Shown in pieces: positions 34,195 to 53,523 of a stretch of 64,000 nucleotides of DNA. Below the pieces are notes generated by a model that ran no database searches, was not told the DNA's origin, and saw only the letters and a list, made by a program, of their open reading frames with translations. The translations under genes and the position numbers were made by a program. The DNA is from Candidatus Aminicenantes bacterium (GTDB lineage Bacteria; Acidobacteriota; Aminicenantia; Aminicenantales; CAVYOD01). The stretch is from assembly GCA_963770045.1 (NCBI GenBank), contig CAVYOD010000022.1, positions 41,173 through 105,172 on the forward strand, in the 5' to 3' direction. The first letter of the stretch is position 1; each line of letters starts with the position of its first letter.

Positions 34195-36180
34195 ATGAAA
34201 TCTCCGAGTTTGTCTTTACGAACGAAGCTCATCCTCAGTTTTCTTGTGGTCATCACGATCGGCGGACTTATTTCTCTCTTTTTCGGTTCCCGCCTGACCA
34301 GAGAGACCTTGATTTCGCAGGCCCAGATCAAAGTCAAACACGATCTCTCCTCGGCCTGGCTGGTTTTTAACGAAAAACTCAGCAGCATCAGGCAGGTCGT
34401 CAGCCTGACCGCCGCCCGGGAAAGCCTGCGGGAGTTGCTCAAGAACGGGCAGACGGAAACTCTTTATCGCTACCTCAAACGGGTCCGAGAGGAATCCGGG
34501 CTGGACATCCTGACGGTTACGGATGCCTCGGGCCGGGTTATCATGAGGACCAGAAACCCACAATCGTCCGGCGACAGCGAAGCCCGGGACGAACTGGTTC
34601 AGAAGGCACTCGGCAAAGGCCTTTACGCCGGGCCGGAAATTGTCCCCCGGGACGAGCTCCTTAAAGAGGGAGAGGCTTTGGCGGATCAGGCCCTCATGAA
34701 CATCGTCCCGACGGCCAAGGCGGCTCCACGCGGCGAAAACAGAGAAACGAGTGGACTGATGCTCAAAGCCGCTGCTTCCGTGACCGACGATGAGAACAGG
34801 TTGCTCGGAGTGCTCTATGGCGGCATTCTGGTCAACAGAAACTACGAGATCGTGGACAGGATCAAAGAGCTCGTCTTTAAGGGAGAAAAGTACAAGGGGA
34901 GGGAGACCGGGACTGCCACCATTTTCCAGAATGACCTCCGCATCTCAACGAATGTCAAAAACGAAAGAGGTGAACGGGCCGTCGGGACACTCGTTTCCAA
35001 CCTGGTCAAAAAGGCCGTTCTGGACGAGGGAATTCCCTGGATCGACCGGGCCTTTGTCGTCAACGACTGGTATATCACCGCCTACGAACCGATCAAAAAC
35101 ATCTCCGGCAAGATCATCGGCATTCTCTACGTCGGAATGCTGGAAAAGCCCTACCTGGACGCGGCCAACCGGCTGATGCTGACTTTTACCGTCCTGGCCG
35201 TTTTATGTGTCCTTTTCCTCCTTGTGATATTGTACTTTTCCACGGCACGGATCATCAAACCGCTTGAAAAAATGGCTGTCGCCACTCAGGAGATCGCCAA
35301 AGGAGACCTTTCGCACAAAGTCGAGATCGATTCCAAGGATGAGATCGGGCGGCTGGCCGATTCTTTCAATCAAATGACCGAGCATCTTCGGGAAGCAAAC
35401 AAAGAACTTATCGAATGGGGCACCACGCTGGAAAAAAAGGTCGACGAACGGACCAAAGAACTCGTGGAAATACAGGGACACTTGATCCAATCGGAAAAAC
35501 TCGCCTCTCTTGGCAAACTGGCCGCCGGCATCGCCCACGAAATCAACAATCCGCTGGGAGGCATCCTGATTTACAGCTACCTTATTCTGGAGGAGACTCC
35601 CAAAGACAACCCGCACTATGACAATCTTAAGAAGATCGTCAAAGAAACGACCCGTTGCAAAGACATCGTCAAGGGCCTGCTCGAATTCGCCCGCCCCAAG
35701 GAGCCGGAGATGTCCCTGACGGATATCAATGACGTCATCGAACGATCTCTTTCCATCGTCGAGCGCCAGGTGCTCTTCCAGAACATCACCATCAAAAAGG
35801 AATACTCCCGCGGCCTGCCCAGGACGATCGCCGATGGCGCTCAGCTCCAGCAGGTTTTTATCAACATGATCATCAACGCCGCTGAGGCCATGAAGGGAAA
35901 CGGAGCCCTCACGATCAAGTCTTCTCTCGAGCAGGACAAGCAATATTTGGCCATCGAATTCACTGACACGGGACACGGGATCAGAGAAGAAGACAAGAAG
36001 CGGCTCTTTGAGCCTTTTTTTACCACGAAGGAGGTGGGCAAAGGCACCGGTTTGGGCCTGGCGATCAGCTATGGCATCATCCAGAAACATAATGGCGCCA
36101 TCATTGTTTCCAGTCAGGTGGGAAAGGGCACGACCTTTAAGGTCAGATTGCCTGTGCGGAAAGAAGTCCAGCATGGTTGA
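34195..36180 (+). CDS. sensor histidine kinase (two TM segments, extracytoplasmic Cache-like domain, HAMP, HisKA, HATPase)
   Basis: 661-aa ORF. TM segments LILSFLVVITIGGLISLFF and LTFTVLAVLCVLFLLVILYF. H-box AAGIAHEINNPLGG. ATPase boxes INMIINAAEAM, DTGHGI, GTGLGLAIS. Confidence 0.88.
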   Translation: MKSPSLSLRTKLILSFLVVITIGGLISLFFGSRLTRETLISQAQIKVKHDLSSAWLVFNEKLSSIRQVVSLTAARESLRELLKNGQTETLYRYLKRVREESGLDILTVTDASGRVIMRTRNPQSSGDSEARDELVQKALGKGLYAGPEIVPRDELLKEGEALADQALMNIVPTAKAAPRGENRETSGLMLKAAASVTDDENRLLGVLYGGILVNRNYEIVDRIKELVFKGEKYKGRETGTATIFQNDLRISTNVKNERGERAVGTLVSNLVKKAVLDEGIPWIDRAFVVNDWYITAYEPIKNISGKIIGILYVGMLEKPYLDAANRLMLTFTVLAVLCVLFLLVILYFSTARIIKPLEKMAVATQEIAKGDLSHKVEIDSKDEIGRLADSFNQMTEHLREANKELIEWGTTLEKKVDERTKELVEIQGHLIQSEKLASLGKLAAGIAHEINNPLGGILIYSYLILEETPKDNPHYDNLKKIVKETTRCKDIVKGLLEFARPKEPEMSLTDINDVIERSLSIVERQVLFQNITIKKEYSRGLPRTIADGAQLQQVFINMIINAAEAMKGNGALTIKSSLEQDKQYLAIEFTDTGHGIREEDKKRLFEPFFTTKEVGKGTGLGLAISYGIIQKHNGAIIVSSQVGKGTTFKVRLPVRKEVQHG

Positions 36181-37528
36181 AGCGGCCAACATCCTGATCA
36201 TCGATGACGAAGAATCCATCCAGGATTCTCTCCGTCAGGTTCTGCGCAAAGAGGGCTTCCAGGTCAAGATTGCCAAGGACGGCCATGAAGGACTCGCCCT
36301 TTTCAACAGCGAGAATTATCAGGCGGTCTTCCTTGACCTGAGGCTTCCCGGGATCAAAGGCATGCAGGTGTTGAGCCAGATCAAAGAGACAAACCCCGAG
36401 ACTCCTGTGATTATCATCACCGGCTATGCTTCGATCGAATCGGCTGTCGAAGCCATCAAACGGGGAGCGTTTGATTATATGGCCAAGCCGTTTACGCCGG
36501 AGGAAGTGCGAATCATCACCAAAAAAGCCCTGGACAGCCGGAAAATGCTCATTGAGAATATCTATCTCCGGAGCGAGCTGGAAGCCAAGACCGATTCCCA
36601 GATGGTCGTGGGCAAGAGCATGGCCATGAAGAAGGTCATGGATATCATCTGCCGGGTGAGCCCGACCGAAACCACTGTCCTGATCACCGGAGAGAGCGGG
36701 ACGGGAAAAGAACTCATCGCCCAGGAGATCCATCGTCACAGCCTCAGGTTCAAAGCGCCTTTTGTCGTTGTCGACTGCGGGGCGCTCGTGGAGACCCTCT
36801 TCGAAAGCGAGCTTTTTGGCCACGTCAAAGGGTCCTTCACCGGGGCCCACGAAACAAAACACGGCCGTTTTGAAGTCGCCCACGGAGGCACGATTTTCTT
36901 CGACGAAATCAGCAATATCAGTCTCAACATCCAGGCCAAACTTCTCCGGGTCATCCAGGAGCGGGAAGTCACCCGGATCGGCAGCTCCAAGCCGATTAAG
37001 GTTGATGTCCGCATTCTCGCCGCGACGAACGAGAATCTGGCCGAGGCGGTAAGCAAAGGGAAGTTCAGGGAAGACCTTTTTTACCGTCTCAGCGTCGTCC
37101 CCGTCCATCTGCCGCCGCTCAGGGAAAGAAAAGAAGACGTCCCTTCTCTGGTGGAGCACTTTCTGCAAAAATATAACAAAAAGGCGAAAAAGAACATCAA
37201 AGGTATATCCCCGCAAGCCCTCAAAGCTCTGACGGAGTATGACTGGCCGGGAAACATCCGGGAGCTCGAAAACACGATTGAGCGAGCCGTTGTCCTTTCC
37301 AAGGGAAACGGTCTGGACATCGAAGACCTCATGTATCACGGCATTAGCGCCAGCTCCTCGATCCTCCCCCCGCTCGGTGGAAAATATAAAACCTTGGAAG
37401 AAATCGAAAAAGAATACATCAAGGGTGTCCTCAGGGCCCAATACGGAAACAAAAGCCGGTCCGCGAACATCCTCGGGATTGATCGTAAAACCCTCTGGGC
37501 CAAAATCAAAAGGTTCGGCTTCAAGTAA
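36173..37528 (+). CDS. sigma-54-dependent response regulator (NtrC family: REC-AAA+-Fis HTH)
   Basis: Start at ATG 36173 (overlaps the kinase stop). ILIIDDEESI..FLDLRLPG, GESGTGKE, ESELFGHVKGSFTGA, C-terminal NKSRSANILGIDRKTLWAKIKRFG. Confidence 0.9.
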   Translation: MVEAANILIIDDEESIQDSLRQVLRKEGFQVKIAKDGHEGLALFNSENYQAVFLDLRLPGIKGMQVLSQIKETNPETPVIIITGYASIESAVEAIKRGAFDYMAKPFTPEEVRIITKKALDSRKMLIENIYLRSELEAKTDSQMVVGKSMAMKKVMDIICRVSPTETTVLITGESGTGKELIAQEIHRHSLRFKAPFVVVDCGALVETLFESELFGHVKGSFTGAHETKHGRFEVAHGGTIFFDEISNISLNIQAKLLRVIQEREVTRIGSSKPIKVDVRILAATNENLAEAVSKGKFREDLFYRLSVVPVHLPPLRERKEDVPSLVEHFLQKYNKKAKKNIKGISPQALKALTEYDWPGNIRELENTIERAVVLSKGNGLDIEDLMYHGISASSSILPPLGGKYKTLEEIEKEYIKGVLRAQYGNKSRSANILGIDRKTLWAKIKRFGFK

Positions 37529-37556
37529 CGAGACGTCCTCTTTTTGCCCAGCGATT

Positions 37557-37569
37557 GGGGAAAAATGCC
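37557..37569 (+). promoter_or_regulatory. candidate enhancer (UAS) motif GGGGAAAAATGCC
   Basis: Identical 13-mer also at 42484-42496 and a near-copy at 53820-53832 (minus). Each lies about 110-135 bp upstream of a sigma-54 -24 element. Confidence 0.45.
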
Positions 37570-37686
37570 ACTATGCCTCGGGCCGGGCGCTTCCCTGATC
37601 GTCATGTCTAACTCCTTGATCCGTCCAATTCCTTTTTTATCAACAAAATAAGAAATCTCGGCGATTCGCCTGTCCAGGCCAGGATT

Positions 37687-37703
37687 AGGCATATAAGTTG
37701 CAT
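37687..37703 (+). promoter_or_regulatory. sigma-54 (-24/-12) promoter upstream of the group 3b-like hydrogenase operon
   Basis: TAGGCAT-ATAAG-TTGCA. GG and GC are separated by exactly 10 nt. About 85 nt before ATG 37787. Confidence 0.65.
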
Positions 37704-37786: not shown

Positions 37787-38902
37787 ATGAGAGTCATCAA
37801 ACTCAAGAGGGCACAATTTTACCCTTTTCTAGAAACAATCTCCAAGGAGGCGGAGCTGTGGGCGCCCGTGGCTAAGCCGAGTCACGGCGTTTCCTATGAG
37901 GCCAAGGACGCCTACTGGGTTCCTCTCTCGAACCGAGAGAAATACTCGTTCGAACTGGTCCGGGATTTTTCTCAGATCGCTATGAATGCCACTCGCACAA
38001 TCATCCCGCCCAAAAAACTCTTCCATCCCGCCTACTTCAACACGTTTTTCTTCTCCGAAGACGGCTATAAAGAGGATTTTTCTCATATCCGCAAAAGAAT
38101 CCTCTTCGGCATCCATTCCTGCGATATCCATGGCCTCCTCTTCTTGGACAAGCTCTTTTATCAGGCCTATCTGGATCCCTATTGGCTCAAGGCAAGGGAG
38201 CAAACCCTGATCCTGGGCCTCTCTTGCTGGCCGGATGAGTACTGTTTCTGCCGGTCTACGAGAACCCACCTGATTGAAGAGGGCTACGACCTGTTCTTCA
38301 CCGACCTCGGAGATTATTTCCTGGTCTGGGTGGGTTCGAGCAAAGGTCACGATCTCATCCGGTTGGCCCCGGAGATGTTCGAAGAAAATCTCTCGGATCG
38401 AGATATTCAGGCCTACATTCACTGGCAGGACGAGCGCTCGCGCGCGTTTAAAATGGAAATCAATTTCATCACCATGCCCGACCTCATGGAGCTCAACTTT
38501 CGGGCTCCCTTCTGGGAGAAAGTGGGAAATGCCTGCCTGGCCTGCGGTTCCTGCACGATGGTCTGCCCGGACTGCAATTGCTACAATATTGTCGATAAAG
38601 TCCCCTTGGGCAACAAGCCCGGCAAGAGAATTCGCCATTGGGATTCCTGCACCCTTCACGATTACTCTCTTGTGGCCGGCGGGGAAAACTTCAGGGAGAA
38701 AAAGTCGGAGAGGCTAAAGCTCTGGTACACCCACAAGCTTCAAGCTTATGTGAGCAAGTATGGAAAACCAAGCTGTGTCGGCTGCGGGCGTTGCCTGGTC
38801 ACCTGCCCGGTCGAAATCAACGTCAAGACGGTCGCCGACGCCCTCGAAGGCAAAGAAGCGGATGCTTTTTGGAACAGATTGAAACCCGAGGTGGAAAAAT
38901 GA
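37787..38902 (+). CDS. sulfhydrogenase beta-type subunit (AsrA-like 4Fe-4S protein)
   Basis: 371-aa ORF. CLACGSCTMVCPDCNC and CVGCGRCLVTCP motifs. First gene of a four-gene beta-gamma-delta-alpha arrangement. Confidence 0.8.
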   Translation: MRVIKLKRAQFYPFLETISKEAELWAPVAKPSHGVSYEAKDAYWVPLSNREKYSFELVRDFSQIAMNATRTIIPPKKLFHPAYFNTFFFSEDGYKEDFSHIRKRILFGIHSCDIHGLLFLDKLFYQAYLDPYWLKAREQTLILGLSCWPDEYCFCRSTRTHLIEEGYDLFFTDLGDYFLVWVGSSKGHDLIRLAPEMFEENLSDRDIQAYIHWQDERSRAFKMEINFITMPDLMELNFRAPFWEKVGNACLACGSCTMVCPDCNCYNIVDKVPLGNKPGKRIRHWDSCTLHDYSLVAGGENFREKKSERLKLWYTHKLQAYVSKYGKPSCVGCGRCLVTCPVEINVKTVADALEGKEADAFWNRLKPEVEK

Positions 38903-39759
38903 ACAGAGAATCCCAGTGTTTGTCCGAGGCCAATCCCTTCACGCCTGAGCAGGCCCGCATCGTCCGGACTTACCCCTTGACCCGCGACGTCAGGTTTTTC
39001 CAGGTCCGGTTCGTCGATATGGACAAAGCATTGTCCTTTAAGTATAAAGCGGGGCAGTTCGCCATGATTTCTGTCCCCGGAGCCGGAGAGGCTCCCTTCT
39101 GCCTCTCTTCGACGCCCTCGAGACCCGGCCTGCTCGAATTCTGCATCCGGAAAGTCGGGGCCGTCACCAACGCTCTTTTCCGGATGAAGGAGAACGCCTC
39201 GATCGGAGTCCGGGGTCCTTACGGCAATGGTTTTCCTGTCGAAGCCATGACGGGGAAAGATATCATCATCGTCGTGGGGGGGATGGGTGTCGCCCCGCTC
39301 CGTTCCGTGCTCCTGTACTGTTTGGATAACCGCAATCAGTTCAGGAATGTTTCCCTCCTCTACGGGGCGAAGAGACCTTCGGAAATGATCTTCCGCGAGG
39401 AGTATTTTGCCTTGAAAGAACGAGGGGACCTCGATTGCCACCTCGCCGTCGATGCCGACGACACCGGTCAATGGACCGAGAAGATCGGCGTCGTGACGAC
39501 CCTCTTCCCTTATCTGAAAAAGGTCGACCCCGCCAAAACCTTCGCCCTGGTTTGCGGCCCTCCTGTCATGTATAAATTCGTAATCAAAGAGCTGATCAAG
39601 CTTGACATTCCCAAGGAGCAGATCCTGATGACGCTGGAAAGGCGGATGAAGTGCGGTGTCGGCAAATGCGGCCATTGTGCCATCGATTATATCTACACTT
39701 GCCTCGACGGGCCGGTCTTCAACTACTGGGATGTGATTCACATGAGGGAGCTCATCTGA
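38899..39759 (+). CDS. sulfhydrogenase gamma-type subunit (AsrB/PyrK-like FAD/NAD(P)-binding [2Fe-2S] protein)
   Basis: Start at ATG 38899 (ATGA overlap). RFFQVRF..GQFAMISVPG, VVGGMGVAP, C-terminal RMKCGVGKCGHCAI...C. Confidence 0.8.
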   Translation: MNRESQCLSEANPFTPEQARIVRTYPLTRDVRFFQVRFVDMDKALSFKYKAGQFAMISVPGAGEAPFCLSSTPSRPGLLEFCIRKVGAVTNALFRMKENASIGVRGPYGNGFPVEAMTGKDIIIVVGGMGVAPLRSVLLYCLDNRNQFRNVSLLYGAKRPSEMIFREEYFALKERGDLDCHLAVDADDTGQWTEKIGVVTTLFPYLKKVDPAKTFALVCGPPVMYKFVIKELIKLDIPKEQILMTLERRMKCGVGKCGHCAIDYIYTCLDGPVFNYWDVIHMRELI

Positions 39760-39769
39760 GGAGGAGACG

Positions 39770-40552
39770 ATGGACAAAACGAAACTCAAAATCGGAGTCT
39801 ACGAGCTCACCGGGTGTGCCGGCGATGCCCTCCTGATCCTTGACTGCGAAGAAGAGATCATTAACATTTTCAAAGCGGTCGATATCGAGGCCTTCCTTAT
39901 GGCCAAGAGCGATAATCGCGACGGCAAGCTGGACGTGGCCCTGGTCGAAGGGTCGGTCTCGAGCGAGAAGGAAATCGAAGAACTCCTCGATATCCGCAAG
40001 CGATCCAAGATCGTTGTGGCCATCGGAATCTGTTCCTGCCTCGGAGGGATTCAGGCGGCCTTCCTCGATCCGAAAGATTGGAAGGAGAACTATAAAAAAA
40101 TCTATGGCGACATGGAGATGGTCAACACCAAGGCCCTCCAGCCCAAACCCATCGACGCCTACGTCAAAGTTGACTATTATCTCCCCGGCTGCCCCATCGG
40201 CAAGGATCAATTTCTCTCGACCCTCACCAGGATCATCTCGGGGAATCCCCCGGATATCTATAACTTTCCCGTCTGTGTGGAATGCAAATGGAACGAGAAT
40301 GACTGCCTTCTCAATAAGAATATCCTCTGCCTGGGCCCCCTGACCCTCGCCGGCTGTGGATCGGTCTGTATCAATTACAACCTGCCCTGCGTCGGCTGCT
40401 GGGGTCCCACCGCAGAGGCCAACCGGACCTCCGAATACGAACTCTTGATGGCCAAAGGGTTTGATGAGCGGCACATCAAAAACAAAATGGCCAACTTTAG
40501 CGGCACGCGGGTCAAAGACTTCTTCGCCGGACTGCAAGGAGACAAGAAATGA
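39770..40552 (+). CDS. [NiFe]-hydrogenase small (delta-type) subunit
   Basis: 260-aa ORF. YELTGCAGDALLIL, AIGICSCLGGIQ, YYLPGCP, CVECK...CLGP..AGCGSVC..PCVGCWGP. Confidence 0.85.
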   Translation: MDKTKLKIGVYELTGCAGDALLILDCEEEIINIFKAVDIEAFLMAKSDNRDGKLDVALVEGSVSSEKEIEELLDIRKRSKIVVAIGICSCLGGIQAAFLDPKDWKENYKKIYGDMEMVNTKALQPKPIDAYVKVDYYLPGCPIGKDQFLSTLTRIISGNPPDIYNFPVCVECKWNENDCLLNKNILCLGPLTLAGCGSVCINYNLPCVGCWGPTAEANRTSEYELLMAKGFDERHIKNKMANFSGTRVKDFFAGLQGDKK

Positions 40553-42306
40553 AGACAATAACGATAGAGCACCTGGCCAGGGTGGAAGGGAATGGAGGAG
40601 TCACCGCGACGATCGACGGAAATAAAGTCACCGAGGTGAGATTTTTCGTCAACGAAGCCCCCCGACTCATCGAACGGCTGACCGTGGGGAAAACCCCGGA
40701 AGAAGATGTCAACCTGGTCCCCAGGATTTGTGCCATCTGCACACTCTCCCACAAATATGCGGTCCTCCGAGCCATGGAGCGAGCCCTGGCTGTCAACGTC
40801 CCTCCCAAGGTAACCCTCCTCAGAGATCTGATGCACTTGGGTGAAATGATCGAAAGCCATTCTCTCCACACCTACCTGCTCGCACTCCCTGATTACCTGG
40901 GATTCCCGAATGCCATTGCCATGGCCTCCAAGCATCCCTTCGAGGCCAAGATCGCCCTGGAGATGAAGCAATTCGGCAACCACATCATGGCCATAATGAG
41001 CGGACGGTACATCCACGGGGAAAATCCCGTCATCGGAGGATTTGGAAAATACCCCTCTCGGGAGGAGCTCCTCTGGATTAAGAACCGGGCCCTCCAATTC
41101 TTGCCGTTCGCTCTGAAGACCGCAAAAATATTCGCCGAACTCTCCTATCCGGATAGCCCCGAGGCCGAGACACAATATGCCTGCTGCAATCCCGGCGACG
41201 GGAAATACGGCTTCGTGGGAGACGAGATCATCGTCTCCGGCGGCGAGATCATCGATGCTCAGGACTATCGAACCCTCACTCATGAGTACCTTGTTTCTCA
41301 TTCCTACTGCAAAAGAAGCCTCTACAAAGACAGGCCCTATTCGGTCGGAGCTCTGGCCCGTGTCAATAACCTGGGCGAACGGCTCGATGGAGAAGCGGGC
41401 AAGGCCTTCAAAAAATACTTTGGACCCCGCTGGAAAAAGAATCCACTCTTCAATAACGCGGCTCAGGCCCTCGAACTGCTTTATTCCTTCGAGAGAGTCC
41501 CCGCCGTCATCGATCAGGCTCTTAAGCTCCCGGACCCCGGCTTGGTCAAATACACCAAAACGGCGGGGAAAGGAGCCGGCGCAGTTGAGGCCCCCAGGGG
41601 CACGCTCTTTCATTATTACGAAATCACCAAAGGGAGGGTGAGCTTCAGCGACATCATCACCCCAACGGCCCAGAACGCCGACGATATCGAACGATATTGT
41701 CTCCTGGCCGCCCAGAAACTGCTCGATGCCGGGAAGGAAGAAAGCATCAGGGACAGGATGGACTTGGTCATACGTTCCTATGACCCCTGCATCAGCTGCT
41801 CCGTTCATCTGGCCGAGGTCAGCAAAGCCCCTGAGGACAACTGGAGAGAACAACTCTCTAGGATTCCTCCTGGCCAGCTGCCCGTTTTTGTCGGCTTGGG
41901 GGTGGCGAGCCGGTCCGATGACGGCGTCGGGGCCCGACTGGCTCTGGCCCTGCGCGAGTCAGGATTCAGGGATGCCTGGCTTGAGCCGGAGCCGGCTGCG
42001 AAAGACCTCTGCCAACCAGGTTATTCATCGCGTCCGATCATTTTTATCGATGCCCTGGATTTTGGAGAGAGACCTGGACGGATCGCTTTTTTTCCGCTCC
42101 GGCAAGCTGCCTGGAATTCAGGCCTGAGCCACCGTCTTTCTCCGTTTCTTGGAGCCGGACTGACTTATGCACAGCTTGAAAATTCCTATCTTCTGGGTAT
42201 TCAGCCGGAGAGACTGGAAGAGGGTGACCGGCTTTCCGAGCCGGTCCGCAAAGCCCTGGAAAGAGTTCTTGACGAGATAAAACATCGCCCAGCCTGGCGG
42301 TCATAA
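40549..42306 (+). CDS. [NiFe]-hydrogenase large (alpha-type) subunit fused in frame to a hydrogenase maturation endopeptidase-like domain
   Basis: 585-aa ORF. RICAICTLSH and DPCISCSVH (His at about aa 420). A further 165 aa carry VFVGLGVASRSDDGVG, IIFIDALDFGERPG, SHRLS and LLGIQPE..LSEPV, the HybD/HycI-type pattern. Confidence 0.75.
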   Translation: MKTITIEHLARVEGNGGVTATIDGNKVTEVRFFVNEAPRLIERLTVGKTPEEDVNLVPRICAICTLSHKYAVLRAMERALAVNVPPKVTLLRDLMHLGEMIESHSLHTYLLALPDYLGFPNAIAMASKHPFEAKIALEMKQFGNHIMAIMSGRYIHGENPVIGGFGKYPSREELLWIKNRALQFLPFALKTAKIFAELSYPDSPEAETQYACCNPGDGKYGFVGDEIIVSGGEIIDAQDYRTLTHEYLVSHSYCKRSLYKDRPYSVGALARVNNLGERLDGEAGKAFKKYFGPRWKKNPLFNNAAQALELLYSFERVPAVIDQALKLPDPGLVKYTKTAGKGAGAVEAPRGTLFHYYEITKGRVSFSDIITPTAQNADDIERYCLLAAQKLLDAGKEESIRDRMDLVIRSYDPCISCSVHLAEVSKAPEDNWREQLSRIPPGQLPVFVGLGVASRSDDGVGARLALALRESGFRDAWLEPEPAAKDLCQPGYSSRPIIFIDALDFGERPGRIAFFPLRQAAWNSGLSHRLSPFLGAGLTYAQLENSYLLGIQPERLEEGDRLSEPVRKALERVLDEIKHRPAWRS

Positions 42307-42483
42307 ATCACAAAGTGATATCATAATCATCACTTTGCCTGCCTCATTAATCCTGCATCAATAAATCGCTGCTGGGCGATTCCTTTTCTCATACGACAAA
42401 AATTGATTGCCAGGCGGCCTTCGACATGTTAGAATGCCCGAGGCTGGGCGGTTTCGGAAGCTAGGGAATATTGGACGAGGGAA

Positions 42484-42496
42484 GGGGAAAAATGCC
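42484..42496 (+). promoter_or_regulatory. candidate enhancer (UAS) motif GGGGAAAAATGCC
   Basis: Same 13-mer as 37557-37569. 113 bp upstream of the -24 GG at 42609. Confidence 0.45.
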
Positions 42497-42607
42497 CCAG
42501 ACCCTCTCGGCGAACTCAAGACTCGAGGGCAGGCGCGCTGAATGTCTTGTTATTCGATTATTATCAACAACTTAGAGATAAGCTCTTTTTTCTTAGCAGC
42601 CCAAGGT

Positions 42608-42623
42608 TGGCACATTAATTGCT
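42608..42623 (+). promoter_or_regulatory. sigma-54 (-24/-12) promoter upstream of the REC/REC/hybrid-kinase/hyp gene string
   Basis: TGGCAC-ATTAA-TTGCT, a near-perfect consensus, about 28 nt before ATG 42650. Confidence 0.75.
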
Positions 42624-42649
42624 CTAGGCTGAATATCAGGGATCTCAAG

Positions 42650-43021
42650 ATGGCCGAGCTAGAGAAAAGAGTTTTGATCATTGACGCCGACCCGAAGGCG
42701 AGGAGAGATCTGGCTTCCTCCTTGAAAACTGAAGATTATCATGTTGAAACCGGCCGGGGGCTTTCCGAGGCCATCAAGATGATTTCCCAAGGTTGCTTCG
42801 AATGCCTGATCCTCGACGTGGACCTTCCCGAGATGAAGGGCTATGAGGCCGTCTCGATCCTGAAAAACCTCGATCCGCGCTTAAAAATCATCATGACCAC
42901 GGCGAGGAATAGCAAACGTCTCGAAGCCAAGGTCAGAGAACAGGACATCTTCTTCTATTTCATCAAGTCGTTCGGAAAAGATGAATTGAAGCTCGCAATC
43001 AATAACGCCTTTAACCAGTAA
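42650..43021 (+). CDS. single-domain response regulator (REC only)
   Basis: Start moved to ATG 42650, because the longer ORF would contain the sigma-54 promoter. VLIIDADP...LILDVDLPEMKG...IMTTA...K. Confidence 0.8.
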   Translation: MAELEKRVLIIDADPKARRDLASSLKTEDYHVETGRGLSEAIKMISQGCFECLILDVDLPEMKGYEAVSILKNLDPRLKIIMTTARNSKRLEAKVREQDIFFYFIKSFGKDELKLAINNAFNQ

Positions 43022-43041
43022 AGGAGGAAGGAGAAAACACC

Positions 43042-43449
43042 ATGGCAAAAACCGCGCCAAAGATTTTGGTCATTGATGACGACCCCGATTTCAGGGATGC
43101 CGTGACCCCGATCCTAAAATCGGCCCTGTATGAAGTCGCGACCGCCGCAAACCCCACAGAGGCAAAGGCCAAGATTCTTTCGGAAAAACCCGACCTCATT
43201 CTCCTGGATATCATGATGGACAGCCTCTTTGACGGATTTTCCCTCTGCCATGCCATCAAGACATCTAAAGAATATAAAGACTTCAAAGACACGCCGGTCA
43301 TTTTCGTCTCAGCCGTCAAAGAAATCGCGGGCACCCGATTTCAATTCAAGGGCGATGAACAGGGCATGACCGGTCCCGATGATTACATCGACAAGCCGGT
43401 CAAGCCCGACGATCTGCTGGCCAGGATCGCAAAGCTCCTCAATAAATAA
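43042..43449 (+). CDS. single-domain response regulator (REC only)
   Basis: 135-aa ORF with GGAGGAAGGAG RBS. ILVIDDDPD...LILLDIMMD...IFVSA...DYIDKP. Confidence 0.85.
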   Translation: MAKTAPKILVIDDDPDFRDAVTPILKSALYEVATAANPTEAKAKILSEKPDLILLDIMMDSLFDGFSLCHAIKTSKEYKDFKDTPVIFVSAVKEIAGTRFQFKGDEQGMTGPDDYIDKPVKPDDLLARIAKLLNK

Positions 43450-43467
43450 GGGCGTCATCTCGGCCTG

Positions 43468-43608
43468 GGGGACGTTCCCCAAGGGGCTACCCTGTTCTTC
43501 TTAACAACCGATCATCATCCCTAAGTTCCGTTCGGTCTGATTTTCTTTCTTGACAATTCTGACGCAATGATAAAAATCGCAAAGGATGTCCCCTTGGGGA
43601 ACGTCCCC
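43468..43608. repeat. 19-bp perfect inverted repeat bracketing a 103-bp spacer with a promoter-like sequence
   Basis: Left arm 43468-43486 GGGGACGTTCCCCAAGGGG. Right arm 43590-43608 is its exact reverse complement. The spacer contains TTGACA (43550-43555) followed 15-16 nt later by TAAAAAT. Confidence 0.6.
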
Positions 43609-43719
43609 TATCCACCGTGACTGCGGAAAACACAGATTTTAGCTGAAAATGAAGCTATTATTGGAGTAAAATAAAGGGCTCCCGAGGGCGGGAGGGCAAT
43701 CCCAGAGGAGGCATGTCAG

Positions 43720-44817
43720 GTGGAAGAAAAAAGGCCGGTTATTCTCGTCATCGACGACGAGGAAGCCATGCGGGACTCTTGCTCCCAGATCCTCACCAAA
43801 AGCAACTTCCAGGCTGTAACGGCTGAGGACGGCTCGATTGGCCTGCAGAAACTCAAAGACCTTAAGCCCGAAGTGGCTCTGATCGACCTCAAAATGCCCG
43901 GAATCAGCGGCTTTGACGTATTGGAGAAGCTGCCCGAAATCGACCCCCATATCATTCCCATCGTCATCACCGGTTATGCGACTGTGGACTCAGCCGTCGA
44001 AGCGATGAAAAAAGGGGCCTATGACTTCTTGCCCAAACCTTTCACCCCTGAAGAACTGCGCATCATCATCAAACGCGCCCTGGAGAGGCGAAAACTGATC
44101 CTGGAAGCAGAAACCCTGCGGCAAGAGAAAAAGCTGATGGAAGAGAATTTTATAACGCTGGTGTCCCATCAGCTGCGGTCCCCTCTCGTGGCCATCCAGC
44201 AATATTTTGAAGTGATCCTCGCCGGGATGGCCGGCCAGGTCGACGAAAAAACAAAGGATATGATCCTTCGGGCCCGAGAGAGGCTGGATGGACTTCTCAA
44301 GTTGATCACCGATTGGCTGGATCTGGCCCGGATCAGCCGCGGCCGGATCGTTGACAAGTTCAGGCTATTCGACCTGAAGAGTCTGCTGGAAAAACAAATC
44401 GAGTTCATGCGTCCGTTCGCGCAGGAAAACTCCGTTTCGTTGGAATTGGCCGCCCCTTCGGCTTCGGTCAGCATTCAGGGGGACGAGCAGACCCTGGAAC
44501 AGGTTTTCTCCAACCTGATCAATAACGCCATCAAGTTTAACCGGCCGCAAGGGGTTGTGACGGTTCGCCTGAAGGAGGAGCCGGGCCTCGTTATTATCGA
44601 GGTCGAGGATACGGGAATAGGCATTGCTAAAGAACATATCCCCAACCTCTTCGCCCAATTCTATCAAGTGAACAGGAGAGAAGGACAGAAATACAAGAGC
44701 ACGGGACTCGGCCTTTCCATTGCCAAGAAGATCGTTGAAGCCCATAACGGTTCCATTCAGGTTACGAGTGAACTGGGGAAAGGCAGCACCTTCCGAGTTC
44801 TGTTGCCCAGATCATAA
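43720..44817 (+). CDS. hybrid REC-HisKA-HATPase sensor kinase
   Basis: 365-aa ORF (GTG start). VILVIDDEE..LIDLKMPG, H-box LVSHQLRSPL, NLINNAIKF, DTGIGI, GLGLSIAKK. Confidence 0.88.
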   Translation: MEEKRPVILVIDDEEAMRDSCSQILTKSNFQAVTAEDGSIGLQKLKDLKPEVALIDLKMPGISGFDVLEKLPEIDPHIIPIVITGYATVDSAVEAMKKGAYDFLPKPFTPEELRIIIKRALERRKLILEAETLRQEKKLMEENFITLVSHQLRSPLVAIQQYFEVILAGMAGQVDEKTKDMILRARERLDGLLKLITDWLDLARISRGRIVDKFRLFDLKSLLEKQIEFMRPFAQENSVSLELAAPSASVSIQGDEQTLEQVFSNLINNAIKFNRPQGVVTVRLKEEPGLVIIEVEDTGIGIAKEHIPNLFAQFYQVNRREGQKYKSTGLGLSIAKKIVEAHNGSIQVTSELGKGSTFRVLLPRS

Positions 44818-44834
44818 ACCCTCCAGGCCCCTCG

Positions 44835-45326
44835 ATGAAAACTCTTGTCCTCGGCTTAGGAAATGACCTCTATGGAGACGACGCGGTGGGACTCCGGGTC
44901 GTCCGGACCCTCAAGGAACAATCCGCCCTCTCTCGAAACCCGGCGGCCGCAAACGAAGAGGTCGGTTTTGAAGAATGCTCTCTGACGGGCCTTGCCCTCC
45001 TCGACGTTATCATCGGCTACGATGCGCTCGTGATCATCGATACGATCAAGAAACCGGATCCCCTGACCGGCCGGATCCATGTCCTCGACGGAAAAGACCT
45101 GCGGGCCATCCCCGGACCTTCCCCCCATTATGTCTCCGTGCCCCAGATGATCGAGATCGGCCGAGCCTCGGGAGTCCATGTGCCGTCCACGATCAAGGTC
45201 GTCGCCGTCGAAGCCAAAAACATCTACAATCTGGGTGAGGGGCTGAGCCCGGAGATGCGAAAGAGCATCCCTGCGGTCATCAAAAAAGTGAAAGAAGTCC
45301 TGATCTCCCTAAAAGGTAATAACTGA
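44835..45326 (+). CDS. stand-alone hydrogenase maturation endopeptidase (HyaD/HybD/HycI family)
   Basis: 163-aa ORF. LVLGLGNDLYGDDAVG, LVIIDTIK, SPHYVS, VVAVEAK..LSPEM. Confidence 0.85.
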   Translation: MKTLVLGLGNDLYGDDAVGLRVVRTLKEQSALSRNPAAANEEVGFEECSLTGLALLDVIIGYDALVIIDTIKKPDPLTGRIHVLDGKDLRAIPGPSPHYVSVPQMIEIGRASGVHVPSTIKVVAVEAKNIYNLGEGLSPEMRKSIPAVIKKVKEVLISLKGNN

Positions 45327-45394
45327 AAATGAGGATACCCGTTCGGTGGCCCGGCCGCTCAAATCCGGCGTTTAAAAAGAATAAAGAAAAGAAG

Positions 45395-46075
45395 ATGAAT
45401 AAAGTCGTGAAGAAGGAAATCACGGTCTTGGAGGATATCCTCGGCTCGAACAAGAAGATCGCTTCGGAGATCAGGAAAAAACTGGAAGAAAGAGGCATCT
45501 TGACCATAAATCTCATGAGTTCCCCCGGTGCCGGAAAAACGACCCTGCTCGAGGCGATCGCCGAACGGCTCAAACCTCATTCCCGGATGGCCGTGGTCGA
45601 GGGCGATATCGAGACAGAACGCGACGCCGAAAGGATCCGCGCCAAGGGAATCCCGGCCTGGCAGATCACGACCGGCGGCGCCTGCCATCTGGAGGCCAAA
45701 ATGCTGGCCAAGATCTTCCCGCAAATCCCGGAAGACCTGGATTTCCTGTTCATCGAAAACGTAGGCAATCTGGTCTGTCCGGCGAGCTACGACCTAGGTG
45801 AGAACCTCCGCTGCGTCCTCCTTTCTTCTCCCGAGGGGGATGACAAGCCCAAAAAATATCCCAAGGCCTTTATCTCGTCCCATTGTCTGATCATTACAAA
45901 GGCGGATCTCGTGCCTCTCGTTCCCTTCGACCCAGAAAAAGCCATGAAAGAGGCTCTCGAGCTAAACCCCAAACTGAAAGTGTTTATCGTCTCGGCCCTG
46001 ACCGGAGCAGGTGTCGACGACCTCGTCGAGTATTTCCGATCAGAACTCTTGAAGTTGAAAAAAGCCGATGCATGA
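45395..46075 (+). CDS. hypB: hydrogenase nickel-incorporation GTPase HypB
   Basis: P-loop SSPGAGKTTLL, EGDIETERDAERI, ENVGNLVCP, ITKADL. Start could alternatively be the ATG at 45329. Confidence 0.88.
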   Translation: MNKVVKKEITVLEDILGSNKKIASEIRKKLEERGILTINLMSSPGAGKTTLLEAIAERLKPHSRMAVVEGDIETERDAERIRAKGIPAWQITTGGACHLEAKMLAKIFPQIPEDLDFLFIENVGNLVCPASYDLGENLRCVLLSSPEGDDKPKKYPKAFISSHCLIITKADLVPLVPFDPEKAMKEALELNPKLKVFIVSALTGAGVDDLVEYFRSELLKLKKADA

Positions 46076-46412
46076 ACTTTCGATCATCGCCAGCCTGTTC
46101 GACATCCTCCTCGAAAAAGCAAAGGAGCAGAACGCCAAAAAGATCGTCCGCGTCATCCTCAAAGTCGGCCGCTTGTCGGGCGCTGTTCCCGACTTCTTAG
46201 AATCGTCCTTCGACATTTATAAGAAGGATACTCTGGCCGAGGAGGCTATCCTGGAGGTTACGGCCGTCCCGCTCAAAGTCCGCTGCGCACCCTGCGGGAC
46301 GGAGACCATCAAGGATGATTATATCTTTGTCTGCCCGGCCTGCGGCTCGACAGACCTCAAGATCATTGAAGGAACCGAGCTGTTATTGGAGAAGATCGAA
46401 TTAGAGGTTTAA
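46068..46412 (+). CDS. hypA: hydrogenase nickel-insertion protein HypA
   Basis: 114-aa ORF. MHELSI N-terminus (Ni site) and CAPCG...CPACG zinc motif. Confidence 0.9.
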   Translation: MHELSIIASLFDILLEKAKEQNAKKIVRVILKVGRLSGAVPDFLESSFDIYKKDTLAEEAILEVTAVPLKVRCAPCGTETIKDDYIFVCPACGSTDLKIIEGTELLLEKIELEV

Positions 46413-46573: not shown

Positions 46574-48349
46574 CTATTTCGCGTCGCTCAGCACGCCCTC
46601 GATCTCAGAAAAGATCTGCTCGTCCTTGAAGTGCCTCTGATAGGAGGCGGAACTCGGGCAGGCCGCGACACAGGTCCCACAGCCCTTGCAGAGGGCCTCG
46701 ATCACCTTGGAAATATTCTCTTCGGCTGAAAATTCGATCGCGCTGTAGGGACAGAGGTCGTTGCAGACCCGGCAGCCGGCGCAGAGCTCAGGGTCGATGT
46801 AGGCCGTGATCGGCGCGATCTCGACCTCGCCCTTGGCGATGACGGCAAGGATCCGGGCCGCGGCAGAACTGGCCTGAGCGACCGTATCGGGAATATCCTT
46901 AGGCCCCTGGCAACAGCCGGCGATAAAGACCCCATCCGTGGCCGTGGCTGTGGGGTCAAGCTTGGGATGCTTTTCCAGGAAGAATCCATCCGGGCTCCGG
47001 CTGATCGAAAAGAGCCGCTGGATCCTGTCCGCGTCCTTCTGGGGCTCGACGGCGCCGCAGAGGATAACGGCATCTACCGGGATTTCCCGGAATTTCCTGA
47101 TCAGAGTATCTTCGCACCGAACAAGCAAGACTCCTTCATCTTTCTTCGACCAGCTCGCCTTCACGACCTCGGCCACCCGGCCGCGGATGACATTGACACC
47201 CTCGTCCAGGATCCGGCTGTAGAATTCCTCGTAGCCTTTTCCGAAGGCTCGCATGTCGATGTAGAACTGATAGACCTCGGCACCCTCCATCCGGTCCCTG
47301 ATCAGATGGGCGAACTTCAGGGCGTACATGCAGCAAATGCGCGAACAATAGGCATGGTGGTTGATATCACGTGAGCCGACGCAATGGACGATGGCCACCG
47401 CTCTGGGCTCCTTGCCGTTTTTGAGGAGGATTTTGCCTCCGGTCGGCCCAGAGGAATTGAGCATGTACTCCACCTCGAGGCTTGTATAGACGTTATCCAG
47501 CTGGCCGTAGCCGTACTCGGCCATCTTACGGGCGTCGAACAGATCATATCCGGTGGTGAGCAGGATCTGACCGACCTCGAACTCATCGAAGCGCGGCTCC
47601 TGTTTGTGGTTGATGGCCATGGGCTCGCAGACTCTCTCGCAGATTTTGCATCCGCCCGTCTTGAAATGGATACAGGCCTCCTCGTCGATCACCGGGATCT
47701 TGGGGACGGCCTGGAAAGTGGGAATGTAGATCGCACTTTCGGGCCCGAGGGTGAATTCCCTCGTCTCTCCCGGGCGCTCCCAGGACGGCTCGATCCGGAT
47801 GTGCTTGGTCGGACACACGGCGGCGCAGGCGCCACAGCCGATGCAGGCCTCGGTATCGATCTCGAAGGGAGTGCAGATCTCGCGGTGGACTCCTCGTCCT
47901 TCCCAGCCGATCGCGTTCGCCTGGACGACTTCGCTGCACATCCGGACGCAGAGGCCGCAGCCGATGCAGGTCTCGTTGAGTTTCTTGAACCTGGTTTCCT
48001 TGACTCCGTATTCTTCGGCCAGCGCCTTGATAACATCCACCTCGGGGCAACGGGCCAGGAGGAGCTCCAGAATCAGCTTCCGATTCTCGATGACCCAGTC
48101 GGTGTTCGTGAAGATCTCTTCTCCCTCCTGGGCGGGGTAATTGCAGGCCGTGACCAGCCGTTTTTTGCGCCCCTTGCGCATCTCCACCGAACAGACCCGG
48201 CAGCTCCCGTAAGGCTCGAGGAAGTCCCAGTGGCAGAGGGTCGGGATGCGGATCCCCAACTGAGCGGCCAGCTTGATCACCGGGGTTCCCCGGGGAGCTT
48301 TGACCTCGTTTCCGTCTATCTTCAGGGTGACGATCTTCTTTTCTTCCAT
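46574..48349 (-). CDS. second [2Fe-2S]/2x[4Fe-4S]::HdrA C-part fusion protein (paralogue of 29357-31114)
   Basis: 591-aa ORF, colinear with the locus-1 fusion. IPTLCHWD..CRVCSVE, CIGCGLCVRMC, CIGCGACAAVCP, AIYIPTFQAVPKIPVIDEEACIHFKTGGCKICERVC, HCVGSRD..YCSRICCMYALK, CKGCGTCVAACP. Confidence 0.8.
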   Translation of the reverse strand: MEEKKIVTLKIDGNEVKAPRGTPVIKLAAQLGIRIPTLCHWDFLEPYGSCRVCSVEMRKGRKKRLVTACNYPAQEGEEIFTNTDWVIENRKLILELLLARCPEVDVIKALAEEYGVKETRFKKLNETCIGCGLCVRMCSEVVQANAIGWEGRGVHREICTPFEIDTEACIGCGACAAVCPTKHIRIEPSWERPGETREFTLGPESAIYIPTFQAVPKIPVIDEEACIHFKTGGCKICERVCEPMAINHKQEPRFDEFEVGQILLTTGYDLFDARKMAEYGYGQLDNVYTSLEVEYMLNSSGPTGGKILLKNGKEPRAVAIVHCVGSRDINHHAYCSRICCMYALKFAHLIRDRMEGAEVYQFYIDMRAFGKGYEEFYSRILDEGVNVIRGRVAEVVKASWSKKDEGVLLVRCEDTLIRKFREIPVDAVILCGAVEPQKDADRIQRLFSISRSPDGFFLEKHPKLDPTATATDGVFIAGCCQGPKDIPDTVAQASSAAARILAVIAKGEVEIAPITAYIDPELCAGCRVCNDLCPYSAIEFSAEENISKVIEALCKGCGTCVAACPSSASYQRHFKDEQIFSEIEGVLSDAK

Positions 48350-48358
48350 GGTCTCCTC

Positions 48359-50203: not shown

Positions 50204-50217
50204 TGTATGGCTCCTCC

Positions 50218-50607
50218 TCAATAATCCGTTTTCTCGCTGCCCATGCCCAGGGCGTATTCCTTGACGATCGCTCCGCCCAGGACGTGCTTCTCAAAAATCT
50301 CCTTGATCTTCTTCTCATCGAGGTCGATGTACTTCACCGGGGCTTGGTCCTTGATCTCGATCGTGACCATGGGCTCATGGCTGCAGAGTCCGGCGCAGCC
50401 CGAGTTGACAAGCAGGACATCGCGCACATTCTTGGCCTCGATCTCCTTGAGCAGGACGTTCATGATCGTCCTCGCGCCCGCGGCGATCCCGCAGGTCCCC
50501 ATGTGGACGTTGACTTTGGCCCGGTATTCCCCGCCCTCGCGGAGCGAGACCGTTTTCCTCGCCGCGTCCCTTATCTTGGCCAGGTCTTCTATTTTGAGCT
50601 TAGCCAT
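50218..50607 (-). CDS. second thioredoxin-like [2Fe-2S] ferredoxin
   Basis: 129-aa ORF. VNVHMGTCGIAAGA...SGCAGLCSHEPM. Colinear with 27110-27499. Confidence 0.8.
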   Translation of the reverse strand: MAKLKIEDLAKIRDAARKTVSLREGGEYRAKVNVHMGTCGIAAGARTIMNVLLKEIEAKNVRDVLLVNSGCAGLCSHEPMVTIEIKDQAPVKYIDLDEKKIKEIFEKHVLGGAIVKEYALGMGSEKTDY

Positions 50608-50619
50608 CTTATCCCCTCC

Positions 50620-51081
50620 TCACTTTTTGTATTTTTTCAGGATCGCCGGGACTTTGGATTGGGAAACCTTGCCGAAGACGTCCTTCCCGACCGTGATCAC
50701 GGGCGCGATCCCGCAGCAGCCGAGGCAGCGGGCCACGTCCAGGCTGAACTGTTTGTCATCGCTCGTTTCCCCCTCCTTGATGTTGAGCTCTCTCACGAGC
50801 GAATCGAAGACGAGCTTGGCCCCGCGGACGTGACAGGCTGTGCCCAGGCAGACCTGGATCGGATGCTTTCCCTTCGGCTTCAGACTGAAGGCCCTGTAAT
50901 AGGTAGCGACCTCGTAAATCTGGTTCAAGGGAATAGCCAAAACCTTGGAGATCTCAACCAGGACCTCTCGCGGCAGATAGCTGTACACATCCTGGACATC
51001 CTGAAGGATCTCGATCAGAAAGTCCTTGCGGATTTCCCATTTCTTGACGATATCGTTGACGGGGCTAAAATCGATACTCAT
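50620..51081 (-). CDS. second NuoE/HydC-like [2Fe-2S] subunit
   Basis: 153-aa ORF. ATYYRAFSLKPKGKHPIQVCLGTACHVRG...CLGCCGIAPV. Confidence 0.88.
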   Translation of the reverse strand: MSIDFSPVNDIVKKWEIRKDFLIEILQDVQDVYSYLPREVLVEISKVLAIPLNQIYEVATYYRAFSLKPKGKHPIQVCLGTACHVRGAKLVFDSLVRELNIKEGETSDDKQFSLDVARCLGCCGIAPVITVGKDVFGKVSQSKVPAILKKYKK

Positions 51082-51112
51082 GATGCCTCCCTCGTAGGAT
51101 TCGTATGAAGCC

Positions 51113-52825: not shown

Positions 52826-52838
52826 CAGAACCTCCTTG

Positions 52839-53523
52839 TTAGACCTCTTGACCGTTCATGCCGGAAGACGCGATTCTTCTTCGGAAGGTGAGTGAGCGGC
52901 AGGGCAACGCGGTCACAGGGACGATCATCTCCATGATCTCCGCTTCCTTCAAGATCTTGGCGAGCTGTTTTCTCCTTTTGACCATTTTTGGGAAAAAGGC
53001 CGATCCGCCCCTTTTTGAACATCCGAAGGCCAAACGGGGCCATCGCGATCAATTTGAGAGGCTTCTTGGTTTTGAGATAATAAAGCACGAGAAGCCCGAC
53101 CTCATAGCCTCGCCCAAAAAGATTGGTCATGGTCACAAAAGACTTCGACAAAGCGAAAACGGGAAGTTTCTTGGGGAAGAGGTCCTTCTCCATGGCCATC
53201 CGTTTCAAAGCATAAAGGATATCAGTGACCTTAATGCCCATCGGACAGCGGACCGTGCAAGCGTAGCAAGACGCGCAAATCCAGATCGTCCGGCTGTTGA
53301 AAATCGATTCGAGGTCGCCAGCCCGGAAAAGGGCGATAATTTCCCTTGGCGGAATGTCCATGGTATAGCTAACGGGACAGGAACCTGAACATGTTCCGCA
53401 CTGAATACATTTTTTGATCTTATCTCCGCCCGGAATATTCGAGACTTGGTAGAGGAAGGTCGCCCTGAGCTCACTTTCTTTTTTGTCCAAAGCACCGGGT
53501 TCTTTTGATGTATTAAGAGCCAT
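52839..53523 (-). pseudogene. hdrC: second HdrC-like 2x[4Fe-4S] protein, probable frameshift near its 3' end
   Basis: Start at ATG 53523 (GGAGG RBS). CIQCGTCSGSCP and CASCYACTVRCP. After ...KKGRIGLFPK the homologous continuation VKRRKQLAKILKEA (compare KNKKQLRTLLKAV in locus 1) is in another frame. The shift lies in the T5/C3/A5 tract at 52984-52999. Confidence 0.65.

Follow-up and report, generated by a model that had tools for sequence, protein, structure and literature searches.

A stretch of 64,000 nucleotides from a Candidatus Aminicenantes genome assembly (contig CAVYOD010000022.1, positions 41,173 to 105,172; hereafter the window) contains three predicted sigma-54 promoters, named P1, P2 and P3, each of which is preceded at a nearly constant distance by a 17-bp palindrome with the consensus TGGGGAA-N3-TKCCMCA; TTGGGGAAAAATGCCACTA and AAGGGGAAAAATGCCCCAG are among the versions present in the window. 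P1 is located in front of a group 3b-like [NiFe]-hydrogenase operon, P2 in front of an operon encoding response regulators and hydrogenase maturation proteins, and P3 in front of a heterodisulfide reductase (Hdr)-type operon. The palindrome is quite probably the enhancer of the three promoters, and its likeliest binding partner is the NtrC-type regulator encoded at positions 36173-37528, directly upstream of P1.

Palindromes and predicted sigma-54 promoters are paired in the window

An earlier note on this DNA had reported a sigma-54 promoter with GG-N10-GC spacing before the hydrogenase operon, and a 13-mer shared between the regions upstream of P1 and P2. Both observations hold. The P1 element was recovered with a position weight matrix (PWM; Table 1), and the 13-mer, GGGGAAAAATGCC, has exactly two copies in the window (37557-37569 and 42484-42496), both of them on the + strand. 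Judged by the pattern YTGGCACG-N4-TTGCW, the GG-N10-GC spacing is exact at P1, P2 and P3. At sigma-54 promoters the distance from the -12 GC down to the transcription start is about 12 nt; the predicted start sites are located at ~37713 (P1), ~42634 (P2) and ~53668 (P3). No sigma-70-like promoter was detected on the + strand before the hydrogenase operon, which we count as support for the enhancer interpretation.

The same note had cautioned that the 13-mer by itself could be a product of chance, and rightly so: nine matches with at most two mismatches are present in the window and 4.1 are expected, which is not significant. The pairing of motif and promoter was analyzed with PWMs built from orthologous loci only, from which the window's own sites were excluded. 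Three promoter matches in the window reach at least 10 bits (23.7, 19.9 and 14.1), the next best scoring 9.2, and exactly three palindromes reach at least 18 bits. These three motifs pair one-to-one with the three promoters, at distances of 124, 118 and 112 bp, and not a single motif-promoter pair was obtained in 100 windows simulated with a first-order Markov model. The PWM score of the main palindrome (site I) of P1 is 23.4, or 20.5 with the window sites excluded, and that of P3 site I is 19.5, or 18.3 with these sites excluded. For the third promoter, the earlier note had pointed to a pair of near-copies of the 13-mer. The pair is real, since 53775-83 and 53820-28 form a perfect 9-nt inverted pair, but the principal site is another one, P3 site I, which is situated in between them.

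The association extends beyond the window. In 718 kb of Aminicenantes DNA, consisting of the window and the orthologous loci, 60 of the 61 palindromes scoring at least 18 bits are located 100-135 bp upstream of a sigma-54 promoter, and the sole exception lies 177 bp upstream of one. The possibility, raised in the earlier note, that the motif is common without being associated with promoters is thus contradicted in the DNA sampled.

The layout is conserved in other Aminicenantes genomes

Relatives of the activator showing 70-92% identity are encoded by metagenome-assembled genomes of Candidatus Aminicenantes, including the complete chromosome OY969586.1; several of the records containing such relatives are labelled as other taxa, for example "uncultured Eubacteriales". 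The DNA runs in which the sequence was found are exclusively wetland, sediment and peat metagenomes, and no RNA run was listed for the hydrogenase gene. The intergenic DNA 3' of the activator gene has diverged between these relatives except for three blocks, which are the palindrome, an A/T-rich block and the -24/-12 element.

After removal of duplicates, 112 distinct promoters have the palindrome 112-125 bp upstream of the GG. The modal distance between palindrome centre and GG is 123-124 bp for the 38 promoters of the P1 type (hydrogenase), 119-123 bp for the 64 of the P2 type (response regulator/hyp) and 112-114 bp for the 10 of the P3 type (Hdr); P3 site I is kept at 109-114 bp in eight orthologous loci. 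The GG, the TTGC and their flanking columns are near-invariant across more than 100 orthologous promoters, with the -24/-12 element of P1 orthologues maintained as TAGGCAT/TCGGCAC-N5-TTGCAT and that of P3 orthologues as GGTAY-N5-TTGCA. One locus (L005) contains the idealised palindrome CTGGGGAAAAATTCCCCAG.

A scan of 185,579 species genomes with the pattern GGGGAAWWWTNCCNC-N(100-118)-GGYAYN5TTGCW returned at least 118 stretches. Among the matches listed, all Aminicenantes stretches are located before a hydB-like gene, the response-regulator genes RR1/RR2 or an HdrC-like gene, and the three from OY969586.1 are the orthologues of P1, P2 and P3. The layout persists in other Aminicenantes assemblies in which the gene order differs. 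In L164, L167, L169, L246, L260 and other loci, the Hdr genes are located directly behind RR1-RR2 under the control of a P2-type promoter. The predicted control by the motif is therefore retained where the Hdr cluster has been rearranged, which speaks in favour of a functional regulon.

Predicted IHF-like sites and upstream elements

An A/T-rich site resembling that of integration host factor (IHF) is typically present ~48 bp upstream of the -24 GG, in between palindrome and promoter. The sequence WATCAANNNNTTR is found without mismatch at positions -47 to -50 in 20 of 54 promoters, P2 and P3 of the window included, inside the conserved A/T block; the position of the P1 site, which deviates from it by one mismatch, agrees with the conserved sites of its orthologues. 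With WATCAANNNNTTR located between the putative enhancer and the -24/-12 element, the organization appears to be that of an IHF-assisted sigma-54 promoter.

Further elements, named site II, are located about 20 bp upstream of site I. At P2, the block AGGAAwwwTTGGAACA is conserved in the 64 promoters of that type, and the orthologous Hdr promoters keep P3 site II as GGgaAAAATTCCC. In some lineages the hydrogenase promoter is preceded by TGTCAAAATTGAACAG. Within 70 bp to either side of the main site no further full-strength site recurs, except for the one at -20 in Hdr promoters, and the conserved blocks at -20/-21 of the P1 and P2 types are only half-similar to the main site. We infer that the site II elements would be weaker auxiliary sites two helical turns away from site I.

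The adjacent activator is the likeliest binder of the motif

The gene at 36173-37528 encodes a protein with the architecture of an NtrC-type response-regulator enhancer-binding protein (Pfam E-values: Response_reg, 3.8e-31; Sigma54_activat, 9.6e-70; HTH_8, 1.1e-12). Its translation contains the phospho-acceptor aspartate in FLDLRLP, the Walker A motif GESGTGKE and a GSFTGA loop in place of GAFTGA, a variant that is also listed for functional activators of Desulfovibrio vulgaris. The NCBIfam scores for AtoC (478 bits; cut-off 714), NtrC (439; cut-off 559) and ZraR (437; cut-off 760) are all below the cut-off, which places the protein in the NtrC-type family but in none of these orthologous groups. 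The gene preceding it encodes a sensor histidine kinase whose best NCBIfam match, an AtoS-like catalytic core, is likewise under the cut-off; the translated sensor domain contains no CXXCH heme motif. The earlier note had placed this pair just before the motif, which is correct except for the gap: the activator gene ends at 37528, 28 and not 29 nt before the motif.

All 33 hydrogenase promoters for which at least 1.5 kb of upstream sequence was available are directly preceded, on the same strand, by a gene for a full-length activator orthologue (66-100% identity). The predicted recognition helix of this motif-bearing group reads KTLWAKIKK, versus KTLREKLKR in homologues with 50-55% identity from Thermodesulfobacteriota and other groups, and the latter occur without the motif. 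A conserved palindromic site ~80-200 bp upstream of a -24/-12 element that is specific for one orthologue group is what an enhancer would be expected to look like, and the palindrome appears to be such a site. The same observations bear on the alternative that the palindrome is a genuine sigma-54 enhancer bound by another activator or transcription factor encoded elsewhere, with the adjacent pair regulating something else. Paralogues of ~42% identity are indeed present on Aminicenantes contigs (loci L054, L060, L061 and L069), and layouts of GGGGAA-N3-TTCCCC with sigma-54 promoters exist before unrelated genes in other phyla, such that the specificity may not be that of one protein only. Nevertheless, the invariable position of the adjacent gene, the restriction of the motif to loci where the KTLWAKIKK group is present, and the fact that no further DNA-binding regulator is found among the annotated open reading frames (ORFs) of the window between ~25 and 57 kb make this alternative unlikely.

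A palindrome might also bind a repressor or a redox sensor, Rex-like or similar, in which case its distance to the -24/-12 element would be incidental. Operons for redox and H2 metabolism are Rex targets in other anaerobes, all three operons of the window are related to redox or H2, and the site is a simple AT-centred palindrome. The spacing, though, varies by only about 6 bp in either direction across a set of over 100 distinct promoters, and an IHF-like site is situated between palindrome and promoter. This is enhancer geometry, for which a repressor located 120 bp upstream has no need. Besides, the Rex box (TTGTGAA-N4-TTCACAA) differs from the palindrome and no Rex-like gene is present among the ORFs annotated in part of the window, so that we regard a repressor site as very improbable. 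Finally, chance would be expected to yield pairs of identical 13-mers in a sequence of 64 kb, and the motif, taken by itself and with up to two mismatches allowed, shows no enrichment. Even so, a chance repeat or a functionless remnant of duplicated or mobile sequence is effectively refuted by the three pairs observed versus none in the simulations, by the retention of the motif where the activator proteins are only 66-92% identical and the flanking intergenic DNA has diverged, and by the absence of any extended repeat around the sites or any Rfam family over them (in the window Rfam detects three tRNAs only, none near the sites).

Several observations weigh against the palindrome being an enhancer dedicated to this activator. 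The site II elements of P1 and P2 are not copies of the main site (with the matrix for site I, that of P2 stays under 10 bits). Three sites per genome is a count among the matches listed. Aminicenantes genomes encode paralogous activators (~42% identity), and it is adjacency and co-occurrence that support the assignment of the 36173-37528 protein as the cognate one. In addition, a regular-expression search over six frames of the window and of 2.8 Mb of fetched loci gave no match to the RpoN-box peptide; several activator paralogues on Aminicenantes contigs do have sigma-54 interaction domains. Altogether, the proposal of the earlier note that the motif is an enhancer site is strengthened by the occurrence of palindrome, IHF-like site and -24/-12 element at fixed spacing before orthologues of all three operons; its suggestion that the adjacent activator is plausibly the cognate one agrees with the 33 loci and the helix-specific orthologue group; and its grouping of the three operons into one regulon fits the orthologous sites across assemblies and a link that survives the Hdr rearrangement.

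The idea that the palindrome or the T-run upstream of it serves as the terminator of the activator gene was rejected, because the palindrome recurs at P2 and in the divergent P3 intergenic region; no terminator-like match overlaps the motif. Some orthologues have a short GGGGACGTCCCC-TTTTT hairpin after the activator stop codon, of which the copy in the window is degenerate. A subgroup of activators (L025-L028 and L077) has the helix KTLLSKLKRY instead of KTLWAKIKKY, and the sites in the corresponding hydrogenase promoters stray further from the palindrome (TAGGGAATTWTKCMWC, with GCATC right halves), which may reflect a weak co-variation of protein and DNA.

Proposed mechanism and regulon

We infer the binding, the phosphorylation, the DNA bending, the signal and the direction of the change in expression from the arrangement of genes and sites. 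The membrane-bound Cache/HAMP kinase would sense an extracytoplasmic ligand and phosphorylate the receiver domain of the regulator, dimers of which would bind TGGGGAA-N3-TKCCMCA through the C-terminal Fis-type helix-turn-helix (HTH). The bound palindrome would be centred ~137-149 bp upstream of the transcription start, and the weaker site two helical turns further upstream would probably aid the assembly of a hexamer. An IHF-like protein may bend the A/T-rich DNA ~48 bp upstream of the -24 element, allowing the AAA+ ring to touch the sigma-54 holoenzyme at the -24/-12 element via its GSFTGA loops and to drive opening of the complex with ATP. The predicted regulon comprises the NAD(P)-linked group 3b [NiFe]-hydrogenase, a receiver/receiver/hybrid-kinase module with HycI-HypB-HypA, and an HdrCBA-NuoEF-type flavin/Fe-S complex. 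That the receiver/receiver/hybrid-kinase genes are direct targets would suggest feedback or a branching phosphorelay.

The proposed circuit is complete, from the sensor kinase and the activator to the DNA motif, the IHF site, the promoters and the three-operon regulon, and it can be tested. It would link NAD(P)-dependent H2 turnover with both hydrogenase maturation and an Hdr-type flavin complex. Co-regulation of these enzymes would be evidence that they work jointly, which gives a clue to the function of the poorly understood Hdr-NuoEF cluster. In metagenome-assembled genomes, the motif can serve to recognize and annotate this regulon. The results are of value for annotation and physiology and do not introduce a new concept.

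A broader and clearly more speculative possibility is that the two-component system acts as a master switch dedicated to the hydrogen and electron-bifurcation metabolism of the Aminicenantes cytoplasm, and that the GGGGAA-N3-TTCCCC module, together with sigma-54 promoters, represents a wider, so far undescribed activator specificity class. If true, the switch would co-induce the group 3b hydrogenase, its nickel-insertion and protease genes and the Hdr-NuoEF complex, and the receiver-receiver-hybrid-kinase module would be an embedded feedback relay. GGGGAA-N3-TTCCCC is found together with good -24/-12 elements on contigs of Nitrospirota, Desulfobacterota (before a homologous kinase), Spirochaetota and Bacteroidota.

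Regarding these other phyla, four loci of Desulfobacula/Desulfobacteraceae (L209, L242, L245 and L259) have GGGGAA-N3-TTCCCC ~121 bp upstream of a good TTGGCAC-N5-TTGCT promoter, followed by a gene for a kinase 38-42% identical to that of the window, behind which are two or three genes for receiver-only proteins; a related circuit seems to exist in this phylum, too. Many of the contigs from outside Aminicenantes (within L162-L278; Nitrospirota, Spirochaetota, Planctomycetota, Bacteroidota and others) have a T before the GG and a full TTGGCAC-type promoter, although neither was required by the search pattern, which suggests that these are real sigma-54 promoters with a similar enhancer. They were not assigned to the regulon because their downstream genes are heterogeneous (Hsp20, GdhA, receiver-like and small secreted proteins).

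Comparison with known systems

The classical NtrC-type promoters (glnAp2 with NtrC, dctA with DctD, and nifH with NifA and IHF) have the same kind of activator, composed of receiver, AAA+ and Fis-type HTH domains, and the same palindromic sites more than 100 bp from the GG-N10-GC, with tandem sites about two helical turns apart and an IHF site in between. What differs here are the targets, which are hydrogen and redox operons of an uncultured Acidobacteriota lineage, and the GSFTGA loop. To our knowledge, TGGGGAA-N3-TTCCCCA is not a recognition sequence of NtrC, DctD or NifA.

HoxA/HupR, with the kinase HoxJ/HupT and the H2 sensor HoxBC/HupUV, is likewise an NtrC-family regulator of [NiFe]-hydrogenase genes. 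In that system H2 is sensed by a group 2b regulatory hydrogenase together with a soluble PAS kinase, and the targets are uptake hydrogenases of groups 1 and 3d. The kinase of the window, in contrast, is a membrane-bound Cache/HAMP protein, the hydrogenases are 3b-like and 3c-like, and no sensory hydrogenase of a HoxA/HupR-type cascade is present among the ORFs annotated in part of the 64-kb window. FhlA and HyfR of Escherichia coli are also sigma-54 activators of hydrogenase (hyc/hyf) and hyp operons that act from upstream sites with IHF; however, they are one-component, formate-binding GAF proteins with membrane-bound group 4 hydrogenases as targets, whereas the window protein is a response regulator controlled by phosphorylation (296 bits against the NCBIfam model of FhlA; cut-off 830).

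The nearest functional analogue in the literature is the D. vulgaris pair DVU2394/DVU2395, a sigma-54-dependent two-component regulator with a GSFTGA variant loop that activates the adh-hdr operon DVU2405-2397/2399, encoding heterodisulfide-reductase-type proteins (Rajeev 2011, PMC3333781; Kazakov 2015, PMC4641369). Unlike the predicted regulon of the window, that of DVU2394 is not reported to include hydrogenase or hyp targets. We rejected identity of the two motifs, because the validated DVU2394 site is reported as a direct repeat and that of the window is a palindrome. According to a neighbourhood survey from 2025, genes for sigma-54 activators are often located near [NiFe]-hydrogenase genes, and hence the general association was already known. 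In the literature searched, no description of the motif or of the regulon was found. The mechanism is textbook, and the predicted regulon itself is newly described. Aminicenantes are abundant, uncultured fermenters of sediments and the subsurface. We know of no experimental work on gene regulation in this group.

Operons and neighbouring genes

The coordinates of the sites, promoters, regulators and operons are given in Table 1.

Table 1. Predicted regulatory sites, regulators and operons in the window.
Feature	Sequence	Position	Strand	Remarks
P1 enhancer site I	TTGGGGAAAAATGCCACTA	37555..37573	+	centre 37564, 124 bp upstream of GG, ~-149 from predicted start
P1 IHF-like site	TATCAACAAAATA	37638..37650	+	1 mismatch to WATCAANNNNTTR; starts 50 bp upstream of GG
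P1 sigma-54 promoter	TAGGCATATAAGTTGCAT	37686..37703	+	GG 37688-89, GC 37700-01; PWM 19.9 bits
P1 -24/-12 element	AGGCATATAAGTTGCA	37687-37702	+	2 mismatches to TGGCAC-N5-TTGCW
P2 upstream element (site II)	TAGGGAATATTGGACGAG	42462..42479	+	21 bp upstream of site I; half-palindrome-like
P2 enhancer site I	AAGGGGAAAAATGCCCCAG	42482..42500	+	centre 42491, 118 bp upstream of GG
P2 IHF consensus	TATCAACAACTTA	42562..42574	+	exact match to WATCAANNNNTTR; starts 47 bp upstream of GG
P2 sigma-54 promoter	TTGGCACATTAATTGCTC	42607..42624	+	GG 42609-10, GC 42621-22; PWM 23.7 bits
P2 -24/-12 element	TGGCACATTAATTGCT	42608-42623	+	0 mismatches, perfect match
P3 site II	GGGAGAAAATGCC	53820..53832	-	20 bp upstream of site I
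P3 enhancer site I	TTGGGGAATTACGCCTCAC	53796..53814	-	centre 53805, 112 bp upstream of GG
P3 promoter-proximal partial copy	CCAGGAAAATGCCC	53773..53786	+	inverted partner of 53820-28
P3 IHF consensus	AATCAATAAGTTA	53730..53742	-	exact match; starts 49 bp upstream of GG
P3 sigma-54 promoter	TTGGTACTAAAATTGCAG	53678..53695	-	GG 53693-92, GC 53681-80; PWM 14.1 bits
P3 -24/-12 element	TGGTACTAAAATTGCA	53679-53694	-	1 mismatch
Sensor histidine kinase		34195..36180	+	extracytoplasmic Cache (sCache_3_3; residues ~35-325), HAMP, HisKA, HATPase (Pfam)
NtrC-type enhancer-binding protein	ILGIDRKTLWAKIKRFG (Fis-type HTH)	36173..37528	+	receiver, AAA+ sigma-54 interaction domain, Fis-type HTH (Pfam)
P1 operon		37787..42306	+	beta Fe-S, gamma FAD/NAD, small and large subunits of group 3b-like (sulfhydrogenase-type) [NiFe]-hydrogenase (Pfam)
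P2 operon		42650..46412	+	two receiver-only response regulators, receiver-histidine kinase hybrid (43720-44817), HycI protease, HypB, HypA (Pfam)
P3 operon		46574..53562	-	HdrC-like, CCG/HdrB-like (two ORFs), HdrA N-terminal part, two NuoE-like, NuoF-like, HoxU/NuoG-N-terminal + HdrA-C-terminal fusion (Pfam, NCBIfam)

The four subunits encoded by the P1 operon, with FAD/NAD and Oxidored_q6 subunits among them, are homologous to HydB, HydG, HydD and HydA, and the best NCBIfam matches are ShyB/HydB and HydA/ShyA (E-values of 1e-80 to 1e-102). These scores are under the cut-offs of the archaeal equivalogs, and "3b-like" is the right wording for this hydrogenase. Its large subunit (40549-42306, 585 aa) runs beyond the C-terminal nickel-site motif DPCISCSVH into a HycI-type maturation-protease domain (residues ~448-578; TIGR00072, 52 bits, cut-off 47). 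The maturation protease and the subunit that it processes thus appear to form one polypeptide; most orthologous large subunits of full length are also in this size range (~580-600 aa). The gene order of the P2 operon is kept in orthologues. In the P3 operon HdrA is split, with the N-terminal part encoded at 51113-51958, the C-terminal part fused to a HoxU-like 2Fe-2S domain (46574-48349) and the NuoE/NuoF genes in between; the ORF matching the split HdrA is a single protein of ~1130-1144 aa in L164, L167, L213 and L274.

A second hydrogenase cluster (26641-34124), encoding NuoE/HoxE-like, NuoF-like, HoxU/HdrA-C fusion and MvhD/VhuD-like proteins and a VhuA/MvhA-like (group 3c) large subunit with the C-terminal end DPCHGCGTHS, is located directly upstream of the kinase gene. 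Neither palindrome nor sigma-54 promoter was found for this cluster within the window, and co-transcription of the two-component genes with this cluster is possible. A long imperfect hairpin, TCCCTTTTCCGCC...GGCGGGCAAAAGGGA (34137-34185), occupies the 70 bp that separate the 3c large-subunit gene from the start codon of the kinase gene; it overlaps the ribosome-binding site of the latter and could act in termination, attenuation or translational control. Self-regulation of the kinase/activator pair was considered and rejected, as neither motif nor promoter is present 5' of the kinase gene in the window.

Divergently from P3, the window contains a gene for a large NAD-specific glutamate dehydrogenase (54004-56880). 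It was rejected as a target because no -24/-12 element was found for it on the + strand in the window. The gene is a conserved neighbour, and in L163, L230, L247 and L254 it is located after HypA on the same strand.

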